Source of the DNA: a virus
Taxonomy: Duplodnaviria; Heunggongvirae; Uroviricota; Caudoviricetes
DNA: 19,577 nt
Virus record (IMG/VR): IMGVR_UViG_2698536387_000012
Direction: 5' to 3' (one strand)
In this document: piece by piece, positions 3,113-17,428 of the stretch
Position numbering within the stretch: the stretch's first letter is position 1
How the letters are laid out: each line of letters starts with the position of its first letter
Notes under the pieces: model-generated
Database searches by the model: none
The model's input: the letters and a program-made list of their open reading frames with translations, nothing else
Told to the model about the DNA's origin: nothing
Translations under genes and position numbers: made by a program

Positions 3113-3325
3113 TCAAAGCGCCACTACATGAACAGCGGCAGGACCTTTAGGTCCGTTCTCAATACCAAATTCAACTTCCTGATTCTCAGTTAATGTTTTG
3201 AAATCGTTGCTCTGAATTGCTGAGAAATGGACAAACACATCTTTGCTGCCATCTTTCGGCGTGATGAAACCAAAACCTTTTTCAGGGTTAAACCATTTCA
3301 CTAAACCAGTCATTTTGTTAGACAT
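3113..3325 (-). CDS. cspI: Cold-shock protein CspI, 70 aa
   Basis: [38 protein letters not shown]... carries the CspA-family RNP motifs (KGFGFI, VFVHF). Confidence 0.9.
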
Positions 3326-15356: not shown

Positions 15357-15370
15357 TTGAGTTTTCTCAA
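15357..15370. promoter_or_regulatory. Operator-like palindrome TTGAG-TTTT-CTCAA in the dicC-dicA intergenic region
   Basis: Read directly; near-identical copies occur at 15893-15906 and, inverted, at 15927-15941. Confidence 0.5.
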
Positions 15371-15420
15371 TGCTAATCACTCAAGGAATCTCAAGTCAAG
15401 GGTTATTAAGATATCTAAAT

Positions 15421-15828
15421 ATGAACGAGAAAACTTTAGGTCAACGCATTAGAGAAAGACGTAAGCAGGTAGGCTTAAGTCAAAACGGTTTAAGCAAAGC
15501 TGCTGGCGTATCTGGCTCATCAATTTCATTATGGGAAAGTGACCATACAGCCCCGCGCGGGCAAAATTTGCATCGCCTCGCCGAGGTATTGCAATGTTCA
15601 CCAACTTGGATACTGTTTGGCGACGAGGACAAAACACCAGCTCCCCCTGTTTCACTCGATAGTGCCTTAGACTTATCGGAAGATGAGTTAGAGATGCTGC
15701 GTTTGTATCGCGCACTTCCTAAATCAGAGCAACAAGCACAACTCAGCGAACTCCGCGCCCGCGTTGAGAATTTTAATCGCCTGTTCACCGAGCTATTAGA
15801 GGCTCGCAAACGCAACAAGCATCAATAA
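15421..15828 (+). CDS. dicA: DicA-like repressor (HTH-XRE), 135 aa
   Basis: HTH region GLSQNGLSKAAGVSGSSISLWES; C-terminal half (...LQCSPTWILFGDEDK...) resembles K-12 DicA as recalled, N-terminal half diverged. ATG at 15421 gives the DicA length; the alternative ATG at 15370 lies inside the operator. Confidence 0.75.
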   Translation: MNEKTLGQRIRERRKQVGLSQNGLSKAAGVSGSSISLWESDHTAPRGQNLHRLAEVLQCSPTWILFGDEDKTPAPPVSLDSALDLSEDELEMLRLYRALPKSEQQAQLSELRARVENFNRLFTELLEARKRNKHQ

Positions 15829-15892
15829 TCATCCCTTCACAAAATTTTAAAGCCTTACATTTCAATGTATTGGCTTTATCTTGCGCCAACAC

Positions 15893-15944
15893 TTGAGTTT
15901 TCTCATCAAAAAACCTTGACGAAAAATAATGAGAAAACTAAATT
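15893..15944 (+). promoter_or_regulatory. dicB-operon promoter candidate (-35 TTGACG, -10 TAAATT) flanked and overlapped by two operator copies
   Basis: TTGAGTTTTCTCAT (15893-15906), TTGACG (15916-15921), 17-bp spacer, TAAATT (15939-15944); inverted operator copy ATGAGAAAACTAA overlaps the spacer and -10. Confidence 0.45.
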
Positions 15945-16020
15945 ACCTCCATCAAGACACCGCACGGTGTTCTCAGCAAACAGTTCCGCTACCCCGGCGT
16001 TAAGGGGAAATGAGGTCAGC

Positions 16021-16176
16021 ATGGATACTATCGATCTTGGCAACAGCGAATCTCTGGTATGTGGCGTGTTCCCCAACCAGGACGGCACGTTCACCGCGAT
16101 GACGTATACCAAAAGCAAAACGTTTAAAACCGAAAATGGTGCCCGTCGCTGGCTGGAAAGAAACTCAGGTGAGTGA
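16021..16176 (+). CDS. ydfA: YdfA, 51 aa
   Basis: MDTIDLGNSESLVCGVFPNQDGTFTAMTYTKSKTFKTENGARRWLERNSGE; GAGGT 6 nt upstream. The track's N-terminal extension has no SD. Confidence 0.85.
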   Translation: MDTIDLGNSESLVCGVFPNQDGTFTAMTYTKSKTFKTENGARRWLERNSGE

Positions 16177-16177
16177 T

Positions 16178-16753
16178 ATGGATTTCGACACAATCATGGA
16201 AAAGGCTTACGAAGAATACTTCGAAGGCCTTGCCGAAGGCGAAGAAGCTCTCAGCTTCAGTGAGTTTAAACAGGAACTCAGAATAAGAATGTGCTCTCAC
16301 AATGACGCGGAGCACAAATATGAGAAGCAAAATCAGACCGCAGAAAATTTTGTTCTGGAACCCGGAGAAACGCTTTTCAAAATTCCCGTTACGTGCCCCA
16401 TTTGCGGTTTTACATCAGAAGAACTTGACGACTCCTGTAACAATCAGGAAACAACCAAGTATGTCGAAGATGATACCGAGTGCGCACGAAGAACGATTAT
16501 ATCCACGAGTCCAAACTCCAGGACCAATAAATCTCACTATGAGAGGGTGATTAATCCACTCCCCCAAACCAATAAAAAAGATGCCGGAGGACAAAAAACC
16601 CAATGGAACAACGGGATATCTGTCAAAAAAAGACGTTCCATTAAAGACAAACAACGCAGCGCCAACAACTGTAAGAGCTTTATACCAGTAATCAATTTTC
16701 ATGTTCTTAAGCGGATTTATTGGTGGTTGCGACATTGCTTAATGAATCCTTAA
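16178..16753 (+). CDS. Hypothetical protein, 191 aa, in the ydfB/ydfC position
   Basis: ATG at 16178 with AGGTGAG upstream, 1 nt after the ydfA stop; internal CPICGF motif; the C-terminal half is low-complexity (K/N/Q/S-rich) and overlaps an antisense hydrophobic ORF (16415-16735). Confidence 0.45.
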   Translation: MDFDTIMEKAYEEYFEGLAEGEEALSFSEFKQELRIRMCSHNDAEHKYEKQNQTAENFVLEPGETLFKIPVTCPICGFTSEELDDSCNNQETTKYVEDDTECARRTIISTSPNSRTNKSHYERVINPLPQTNKKDAGGQKTQWNNGISVKKRRSIKDKQRSANNCKSFIPVINFHVLKRIYWWLRHCLMNP

Positions 16754-17012
16754 AACTGTGGTGATTTTAAGGATACCACCTCGCCTGACGTGGTTAAAAG
16801 CAGGCACACAACACGAAAGCGCACGGCGAAGTTCGTCTCACTGTACGGTGTCGTTAAATTTAATTCGACCGTGCGCTTCCGGTTGTGGCAACCCGCAAAA
16901 TGGCGCGGCGGTAAGTATGGCGGGGTTATTCCTTCCCCGTTGAGGACACCGGGTTGTCAGGTTGACCATACGCTTAAGTGACAACCCCGCTGCAACGCCC
17001 TCTGTTATCAAT

Positions 17013-17070
17013 TTTCTGGTGACGTTTGGCGGTATCAGTTTTACTCCGTGACTGCTCTGCCGCCCTTTTT
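17013..17070 (+). ncRNA. dicF: DicF small RNA (cell-division inhibitor sRNA)
   Basis: Matches DicF as I recall it: UUUCUGGUGACGUUUGGCGGUAUCAGUUUUACUCCGUGACUGCUCUGCCGCCCUUUUU; ends in a terminator-like stem plus U-tract; sits upstream of dicB. Confidence 0.85.
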
Positions 17071-17239
17071 AAAGTGAATTTTGTGATGCGGTGAATACGG
17101 CTAAGCGCACGCGGAACAGTTAAAACCAAAAACAGTGTTATGGGTGGATTCTCTGTATCCGACGTTAATTGTTAACTGGTTAACGTCACCTGGAGGCACC
17201 AGGCACTGCATCACAAAATTCATTGTTGAGGACGCGATA

Positions 17240-17428
17240 ATGAAAACGTTATTACCAAACGTTAATACGTCTGAAGGTTGTTTTGAAATTGGTGTCACTA
17301 TCAGTAACCCTGTATTTACTGAAGATGCCATTAACAAGAGAAAACAAGAACGGGAGCTATTAAATAAAATATGCATTGTTTCAATGCTGGCTCGTTTACG
17401 TCTGATGCCAAAAGGATGTGCACAATGA
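17240..17428 (+). CDS. dicB: DicB cell-division inhibitor, 62 aa
   Basis: MKTLLPNVNTSEGCFEIGVTISNPVFTEDAINKRKQERELLNKICIVSMLARLRLMPKGCAQ; GAGGA upstream. The track ORF includes an unsupported N-terminal extension. Confidence 0.9.
   Translation: MKTLLPNVNTSEGCFEIGVTISNPVFTEDAINKRKQERELLNKICIVSMLARLRLMPKGCAQ

Follow-up and report, generated by a model that had tools for sequence, protein, structure and literature searches.

Which strand of positions 16,178 to 16,753 is coding was the question raised by a 19,577-nucleotide (nt) stretch of viral DNA (Caudoviricetes; IMG/VR record IMGVR_UViG_2698536387_000012), the whole of which is referred to here as the window. The locus lies in the early-left and immunity part of a Qin/Rac-like lambdoid prophage, where the initial annotation had noticed a plus-strand open reading frame (ORF) of 191 amino acids (aa) and, on the opposite strand, a 106-aa ORF with three hydrophobic segments, leaving open which of them codes. 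All of the features that it described are present and its observation was borne out as a whole; the choice of strand is now mostly settled in favour of both, though unequally. The minus-strand ORF is almost certainly a real gene, the older of the two and strongly constrained. The plus-strand ORF is not a simple gene, but comparison of related sequences indicates, with good confidence, that its frame is maintained by selection and translated. We therefore describe the locus as a well-supported candidate antisense overlapping gene pair; its best overall explanation is probably a two-strand module made of a minus-strand membrane protein gene and a partner ORF with a selected open frame.

The 106-aa protein belongs to an uncharacterised, widespread family that has no Pfam or NCBIfam model. 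Database searches recovered 60 relatives, mostly full-length, of 100–111 aa and 34–99% identity (51% in Yersinia, 43% in Herminiimonas and 41% in Reinekea), and a profile search of 1.84 billion representatives returned 487 clusters at E ≤ 1e-3 and 213 at E ≤ 1e-10, mostly of 100–115 aa. Genome and metagenome scans added more than 50 further distinct homologues, which form two subfamilies, A and B. In a 30-member alignment residues Y16, W17, Y18, K19 and A20 and residues G56, G58, E59, W60, N62, H63 and P64 were invariant, corresponding to the blocks DYWYKA and GLGEWINHPL (G-x-GEW-x-NHP) of stand-alone proteins of ~100–110 aa. Raw nonsynonymous divergence (pN) was far below raw synonymous divergence (pS) on the minus frame in all ten pairwise comparisons; the ratio of nonsynonymous to synonymous substitution rates (dN/dS) was 0.12–0.19 in eight of them, synonymous sites being saturated in the other two. 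Across five enterobacterial lineages aligned without gaps, substitutions piled up at minus third codon positions (for example 8/10/23 and 11/7/34). Because of this conserved family and these low dN/dS values, the minus-strand ORF was accepted as a gene. The three hydrophobic segments were modelled by AlphaFold2 as helices (residues 17–32, 42–62 and 85–105), with a short hairpin between the second and third (strands 65–71 and 74–79), at a mean predicted local distance difference test score (pLDDT) of 84.4 and a predicted template modelling score of 0.71.

Searches of Pfam, NCBIfam, PHROG and PADLOC found no family or defence match for the membrane protein, a fold search with its confident model found no significant match in PDB or BFVD, and neither a PDB sequence profile search nor a viral-contig scan with the Yersinia protein gave a match. 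An A/G-rich block at the Shine-Dalgarno-like site upstream of the gene is kept across lineages. No intrinsic terminator was found for the gene, the sole terminator-like match being weak and situated in the head of ydfB. The chromosome of Arcobacter sp. Pygsuia-1 carries three identical loci (L014, L015 and L016) in which a family member lies beside an S24-type repressor; the three copies imply a multi-copy prophage or mobile element.

That the plus strand alone should code, as it is annotated in phage HannyBb, in PHROG 35040 and as gp39 of phage mEp390, with the minus ORF as an artefact, is effectively refuted by these comparisons. The longer plus ORF is indeed a frequent choice of gene callers (cluster P0061, with 1798 members), and that strand alone is annotated in HannyBb and mEp390. 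However, distant full-length homologues of the minus protein occur in many phyla with 3–17 stops in the antisense frame, while searches with the window ORF and with a five-lineage profile found the plus ORF only in Escherichia and Yersinia. The invariant motifs, the third-position bias, the low dN/dS and the confident membrane-protein model all lie on the minus frame. Conservation was thus not confined to the plus frame, nor did the locus reduce to short ydfB/ydfC-like ORFs.

Evidence for the second frame comes from its lack of stops. The two frames are codon-aligned: second positions face each other and third positions face first positions, so that a TTA, CTA or TCA codon of the minus gene reads as a stop on the plus strand. 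None of these codons occurs in the gene in the window, in loci L121, L122, L112 and L118 (Yersinia) or in the Pantoea locus L006, despite a pS of ~0.7 between the main lineages. When each gene's own third bases were shuffled, the probability of obtaining no stop was 0.0088, 0.0145, 0.0076 and 0.0135 in four independent lineages (~0.009 for the window), which by Fisher combination gave 1.5e-5 for the four and 1.5e-4 without the window, through which the locus had been ascertained. Control windows of 106 codons, drawn from 70 ORFs of the same prophages, held a mean of 4.1 TTA, CTA or TCA codons, and 7.5% of them held none. By both measures the openness of the two strands exceeds chance, and it does so likewise in independently diverged relatives: zero antisense stops were found in ~15 diverged lineages, from E. 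coli, Yersinia and Pantoea to Roseateles, at third-position GC contents (GC3) of 0.36–0.57. Avoidance of TA dinucleotides or of A at third positions was ruled out as the cause, since codons such as ATA, CCA and GCA do occur, those of other families that end in A making up 15–27% of four-fold sites.

The depletion follows the division of the family. In subfamily A (PLSKLALDYWYxVL...GAG...FP), which includes the enterobacterial clade, 24 of 30 alleles had no antisense stop at GC3 values of 0.36–0.6, with shuffle P values mostly of 0.001–0.08. Subfamily B (LKIDYWYKAVLV...SLTV) had 3–17 antisense stops at GC3 values of up to 0.57, and its shuffle P values were roughly uniform. The plus frame in subfamily A also stays open for 32–107 codons past the 3′ end of the membrane gene, and closes 15–45 nt beyond that gene's start codon. 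Three subfamily-B or outlying loci, L012 from a Nitrosomonadales metagenome-assembled genome (MAG), L022 from Kushneria and L028 from a Desulfobulbaceae MAG, have a stop-free antisense frame (shuffle P 0.007–0.009) and no recognisable PG...CPxCG head of the kind described below, which could reflect either a GC effect or an independent partner ORF.

The part of the plus ORF that precedes the overlap carries a signal of its own. The CPICGF motif reported in the initial annotation (residues 73–78, 16394–16411) is part of a conserved in-frame pattern, PG-x(11-13)-CPxCG, whose last residue falls one or two codons short of the overlap. The pattern was seen in E. coli, Yersinia, Roseateles aquae and metagenomic loci, including loci whose membrane protein is 39–46% identical. 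Most of the variation in its codons falls on the third base (ATT/ATC/ATA for I, CCC/CCG/CCA/CCT for P, TGC/TGT for C, GGT/GGA for G and TTT/TTC for F), and in most pairs pN/pS was lower in plus frame 0 than in any of the other five frames. The minus gene cannot be the source of this signal, because its ORF does not reach into the region. Pantoea, mEp390, L252/L254 and L279/L280 have a second head type, PGSV...V.L.GW, which comes equally close to the start of the overlap. A CCECG string inside the overlap in Pantoea was judged not to be positionally homologous to CPxCG. Only the single CPxCG is conserved in the plus ORF, the second knuckle of a four-ligand zinc-ribbon or rubredoxin site not being found there, and Pfam and PHROG matches over it were sub-threshold only (RUBY_RBDX, E = 0.023; Zn_ribbon_Com, E = 0.24; a Lar-like PHROG, E = 0.35). 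The plus product as a whole gave no family or defence match in Pfam, NCBIfam or PADLOC, and in PHROG it matched only itself (PHROG 35040, over its full length) and the YdfB head (PHROG 2061, residues 1–34).

In the window the partner ORF does not stand by itself. Alignment with K-12 Qin was near-identical from the ydfA leader to about ydfB codon 33–35 (window ~16276–16282), unrelated until ~16800–16850, and near-identical again through DicF, which confirmed the ydfB/ydfC slot proposed for the ORF. The N-terminal sequence of the 42-aa YdfB of K-12 (b1572), MDFDTIMEKAYEEYFEGLAEGEEALSFSEFKQ, is present together with its ydfA-coupled start: the ydfA stop TGA at 16174–16176 is followed by a single T and then by the ATG at 16178, and K-12 ydfA and ydfB are arranged alike. 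A full-length 42-aa YdfB with its native C-terminus is absent, the sequence diverging past codon 33–35 and running on to 191 aa; the C-terminus of ydfB and all of ydfC are replaced, from 16277 to ~16800, by the partner ORF, the membrane gene and a promoter-like element. The K-12 interval of ydfC (b1573, 72 aa) has no counterpart in the window, ydfC-like sequence being seen elsewhere only, fused downstream of the partner ORF in proteins P0067–P0070. By this alignment the 191-aa ORF is a recombinant of YdfB codons 1–34 and the partner ORF, the latter appearing as the younger, overprinted member of the pair. Its composition changes along its length as had been noted from the sequence: residues 1–34 are acidic (11 D/E versus 2 K/R) and the low-complexity distal half is hydrophilic and basic (34 S/T/N/Q and 20 K/R in residues 81–191). 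Of the partner's codons, ~45 fall beyond the membrane gene and ~110 run codon-aligned and antisense to it. In other phages the partner ORF has its own ATG 34–45 codons ahead of the overlap in most lineages, and in L122, L124, L126 and proteins P0067–P0070 it uses a ydfA-type leader and ATG. A longer, 205-aa version of the window's plus ORF starts at 16136.

Gene callers or phage annotators have called the plus ORF in HannyBb, as mEp390 gp39 and as P0231–P0233. The record of mEp390 describes gp39 (L287, 1756–2211), which is the antisense partner ORF, as 'similar to Bcep176 gp33'; gp33 of Burkholderia phage Bcep176 (L288, 1666–2130), however, is on the strand of the membrane protein and is extended by 45 codons at its N-terminus. 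Opposite strands of homologous loci are therefore annotated in the two records.

In enterobacterial prophages the membrane gene lies in the immunity region, adjoining the repressor gene and antisense to the early operon. In L112–L122 and in Pantoea L006 its neighbours are the early-left genes on one side and, tail-to-tail with it, the gene of an HTH_3 repressor, with or without Peptidase_S24, on the other; in L254, L279 and the isolated phage mEp390 it lies between cro and cII. The window has the order dicA-like gene, ydfA (DUF1391), three-helix gene on the opposite strand, DicF and dicB, and K-12 Rac the order racR, ydaG, ydaF (DUF1391), sieB on the opposite strand, kilS and kilR. Upstream of the minus gene, a 38-nt promoter-like block is kept between lineages whose synonymous sites are saturated. 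This block, a plausible candidate for an extended −10 promoter, scored 8/12 and was missed by a consensus promoter scan of the window. At 92–100% identity it also stands ahead of minus-strand genes unrelated to this one, which encode 66 aa in phage mEp460 and 95 aa in Cronobacter phage phiES15; part of it is deleted in K-12 Qin. With differing cargo genes behind the same element, the slot between ydfA/ydfB and dicF/kil behaves as an antisense cargo site, which suggests a reusable position with a shared promoter-like element. Matches to the element lie at 2501–2540 of L203 (mEp460), ~2196–2240 of L205 (phiES15) and ~3170–3200 of K-12 locus L002, and it is common to many lambdoid phages, including Stx2a-converting, Klebsiella and Salmonella phages. 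A small RNA gene occupies the same relative place in operons of the Rac type (kilS, L286 1906–2003) and the Qin type (DicF), past the antisense cargo slot and ahead of the division inhibitor gene kilR or dicB.

Several observations weigh against a selected plus frame and would fit a locus in which only the minus strand codes, the plus ORF being a chance shadow formed by a ydfB fragment that reads through a stop-poor antisense frame. Codon-aligned antisense is the frame most prone to such shadow ORFs, and the 7.5% of control windows that were stop-free give the chance rate. In the overlap the plus-frame pN/pS was 0.5–1.6, as against dN/dS of 0.12–0.19 on the minus frame, and thus showed no amino-acid constraint of its own, although the test is weak there because nearly every minus-synonymous change is nonsynonymous on the plus strand; minus-synonymous sites are moreover near saturation. 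AlphaFold2 gave the plus protein a pLDDT of 48 overall and below 50 for residues 80–171, so that the tail is predicted to be disordered and the model was too poor for inclusion in the fold search. The plus ORF is broken with the minus gene intact in L121 (a TGA inside CPVC*F), in L119 (no in-frame plus start) and in L111, L128 and L130/131 (one stop each in the overlap). In the window the partner ORF has no start of its own and depends on the ydfB ATG or on an internal ATG at 16289, and the Prokaryotic Genome Annotation Pipeline (PGAP) calls no full-length plus gene. Antisense stops occur in subfamily B and in the other cargo of the slot (seven in Rac sieB, two in mEp460 and five in phiES15). 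The split into subfamilies was made by a crude pattern, and many of the supporting loci are metagenomic contigs without an assigned host.

A chance shadow nevertheless appears unlikely to us. It would have to account for the absence of stops in ~15 independently diverged lineages at GC3 values of 0.36–0.57 and shuffle P values of 0.001–0.08, for which subfamily B offers a control that is roughly calibrated. Only TTA, CTA and TCA are avoided, not A-ending or TA-containing codons in general, the open frame continues beyond the gene on the upstream side only, and the PG...CPxCG pattern is kept in frame, with third-position variation, outside the minus ORF.

The stops in the other cargo genes also bear on why the frame is open. 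It could serve merely to let ribosomes cover the transcript against Rho-dependent termination or against pairing with the minus-strand mRNA, the peptide itself being functionless. The lack of amino-acid constraint and the predicted disorder of the tail, the N-termini that differ between lineages, and the position of the ORF in early operons ahead of genes that are needed (dicF/dicB, kilR, cII and replication genes) would all agree with this. However, the cargo genes of Rac, mEp460 and phiES15 have 2–7 stops, so that read-through is not a general need of the operon and is specific to this membrane-gene subfamily, which lowers the weight of a general anti-polarity device. A long untranslated stretch precedes DicF in any case, and the conserved PG...CPxCG pattern points to a function as protein for the N-terminal part at least. 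We regard ribosome cover as a less likely account still than a chance shadow.

The runs of six and seven adenines within the ORF, three of them in 58 nt, are present as the initial annotation had stated, but its suggestion that they could shift frames did not hold, and programmed frameshifting at these sites was rejected. The runs are the TTT-TTT and TTT-TTG codons (Phe-Phe and Phe-Leu) of the minus gene within GFLSSGIFFIG and SFFD, both in conserved membrane segments; the shifted plus frames are short (36 and 82 aa); and all ~27 distinct alleles examined in the E. coli/Yersinia clade keep the 106-codon frame, with no run-length polymorphism seen among them. Frame-switched variants do exist in databases (P0063, P0076, P0081 and P0058), but they are rare single clusters in which both ORFs are broken, and they are compatible with homopolymer sequencing errors or decay. 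A programmed frameshift or phase-variation site that switches the plus ORF or the minus gene is accordingly very improbable. In one of these variants, P0063 (NCBI, four members), the plus frame is shifted between the first and third runs and then restored; the shift would replace GFLSSGIFF of the membrane protein, and could represent a double homopolymer error or a decayed allele.

Returning to the two-strand module, we propose that it operates inside a DicA-repressed dicBF-type early operon. From their positions we infer that in the lysogen, with the plus-strand operon under repression by DicA, the membrane gene would be expressed from a promoter of its own, and that derepression would lead to convergent transcription and to translation of the partner ORF through the membrane gene. 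As the antisense frame appears to be kept stop-free by selection, the partner ORF is most likely translated with the derepressed early operon; apart from the avoidance of stops, the amino-acid sequence of its tail would be free to vary. The membrane product is probably an inner-membrane protein of the lysogenic-conversion or superinfection-exclusion type by analogy with sieB, superinfection exclusion being suggested by position alone. SieB is a membrane exclusion protein expressed by the prophage, its expression being modulated by antisense RNA (PMC12197685). The sieB genes of Rac, lambda and P22 (with the antisense RNA sas and the internal product Esc) offer the comparison, and the slot of K-12 Rac has the same architecture as the window: a membrane protein gene opposite the early-left operon, between a DUF1391 gene and a small RNA with a division inhibitor. 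The likeness does not extend to the proteins or to the overlap. SieB has 162 aa as against 106, shows no homology to the window protein by Pfam, NCBIfam, PHROG or PADLOC, and its seven antisense stops in Rac mean that there is no antisense partner ORF. Any specific function assigned to either product of the window is tentative.

One such assignment would join the two ORFs into a single unit, in which a lysogen-expressed exclusion or abortive-infection effector is paired with an antidote or regulator from the early operon. The partner, with its PG...CPxCG head and disordered basic tail, might neutralise or regulate the effector and so confer self-immunity on the induced phage; convergent transcription would also silence the effector gene, and the antisense overlap would secure joint inheritance of effector and antidote. 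If true, this would explain the mobility of the cassette, which is found after ydfA/ydfB, after cro and next to cI, as well as its persistence from Enterobacterales to Burkholderiales. We consider such a unit speculative and unlikely in this specific form.

The closest published analogue of the locus is the olg1/gene 10 pair of Pseudomonas phage Fc02. There, an antisense overlap in the lysis-lysogeny region has both genes translated and both excluding phages, the small olg1 being expressed in the lysogen and gene 10 following a cro/ner-like gene in the early lytic operon (PMC9936078). The partner ORF likewise follows cro in L254, L279 and mEp390. The systems differ in that Fc02 belongs to the B3-like transposable phages, that no homology between the two is evident, that the strand of the membrane-associated product may not be the same, and that the Fc02 pair is experimentally supported whereas the module in the window is supported by comparative evidence. 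Antisense overlapping genes have also been reported from E. coli O157:H7 and P. aeruginosa (pop/ompA, ano, asa and laoB; olg1/olg2). Those cases are likewise long ORFs antisense within a recognised gene and excluded by annotation pipelines; they rest mainly on RNA sequencing, ribosome profiling and phenotypes, and are mostly young and taxonomically narrow. In the window, by contrast, it is the older and smaller gene that lies entirely within the younger ORF, and the evidence is drawn from depleted stops and from a motif kept in frame in Beta- and Gammaproteobacteria. The dicBF operon of K-12 Qin itself shares the ydfA-coupled start and the first ~33 ydfB codons with the window, with DicF, dicB and ydfD following, and differs by the replacement described above. 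The locus thus combines two things: an accessory gene of a prophage, placed where Rac has sieB, and an overlapping antisense ORF that has comparative support.

Few long antisense overlapping genes are known from bacteria, and their status is disputed, in large part because a single strain usually supplies the evidence. The evidence for this pair is comparative and independent of expression, consisting of the avoidance of three stop-making codons, a motif outside the overlap and a sister subfamily as negative control. The locus also contains a conserved gene that is missing from the reference annotation and whose opposite strand is annotated in phage records, in a region found in ~790 complete E. 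coli genomes. Situated at the lysis-lysogeny switch, the module would provide a testable model of how an accessory gene and an early lytic operon share the same DNA, and its frames are separable, as mutations silent in one frame can be used to introduce stops into the other. The features of the locus are collected in Table 1.

Table 1. Features at and around the locus (window coordinates), with the peptides preceding the overlap in the window and in related loci
Feature	Position	Strand	Details
dicA-like repressor gene	15421-15828	+	
Sigma-70-like promoter match	15916-15944	+	TTGACG-17-TAAATT, upstream of ydfA; basis: consensus scan only
ydfA (DUF1391)	16021-16176	+	First gene of dicBF-type early operon; Pfam PF07151, E = 8.8e-28
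191-aa chimeric plus ORF	16178-16753	+	ATG 16178, stop 16751-16753; YdfB N-terminus fused in frame to partner ORF
ydfB-derived segment	16178-16279	+	Codons 1-34; identical to K-12 YdfB through ~codon 33
Partner-ORF segment outside overlap	16280-16414	+	Internal ATG 16289; PG 16361-16366; IPVTCPICGF 16382-16411
Overlapped tail of plus ORF	16415-16753	+	Codon-aligned antisense of membrane gene; stop-free; ends 18 nt past minus start codon
106-aa membrane protein gene	16415-16735	-	Start ATG 16735-16733; stop 16417-16415
A-runs	16574-16579; 16593-16598; 16625-16631		A6, A6 and A7
Shine-Dalgarno-like AAGGA	16747-16751	-	11 nt upstream of minus ATG; overlaps plus ORF stop
Promoter-like element (candidate)	16770-16807	-	-35 TTAACC 16797-16792; 16-nt spacer; TG 16778-16777; -10 TATCCT 16775-16770
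DicF small RNA	17014-17065	+	Downstream in same operon; Rfam RF00039, 76.7 bits, E = 1.4e-16
dicB	17240-17428	+	ydfD next
Peptide before overlap, window			LEPGETLFKIPVTCPICGFT
Peptide before overlap, L112			GEDICFIPTECPICGFV
Peptide before overlap, Yersinia			NEEIFSIPIECPICGFR
Peptide before overlap, L251			PPGFKFTPLHVKCPRCGCD
Peptide before overlap, L258			PPGFKFVPFHKTCPQCGCD
Peptide before overlap, L260			PTGWKFTPLHKNCPQCGFD
Peptide before overlap, Roseateles aquae			PPGATITPFYFNCPKCGHR

The region is identical (100% over 1,251 bases) to E. coli O157:H7 strain 493/89, and, of the 5,426 complete E. coli genomes, ~789 covered at least 80% of the queried stretch. For the identical sequence the PGAP annotation lists ydfA and, at 16178–16279, a 'protein YdfB, incomplete, missing C-terminus', marked as a partial pseudogene, with nothing further before dicB; neither the minus gene nor the full-length plus ORF is annotated in RefSeq. 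This leaves a feature-free stretch of ~960 bp (window 16280–17239, NZ_CP038412.1 2983082–2984041), in which DicF is also unannotated despite scoring 76.7 bits against a gathering score of 48. DicF was the sole significant Rfam match near the locus. A sub-threshold match to STnc100 (RF02076; 34.6 bits against a gathering score of 47, E = 3e-5) at 17063–17272 spans the full length of the model and takes in the dicF–dicB spacer and the start of dicB.

The organisation of the dicBF operon and its repression by DicA were taken from published work (PMC5069750), and the sigma-70-like match upstream of ydfA sits where the promoter of that operon would drive plus-strand transcription through the locus. 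Two minus-strand genes, one ydaT-like and the other cro-like, open the gene order. The dicA-like ORF measures 152 aa from its first ATG (15370–15828), against 135 aa in the PGAP annotation (15421–15828). The ORF at 15865–16176 encodes 103 aa, that is, ydfA plus a 52-codon leader, and phage HannyBb annotates this longer version as a coding sequence.

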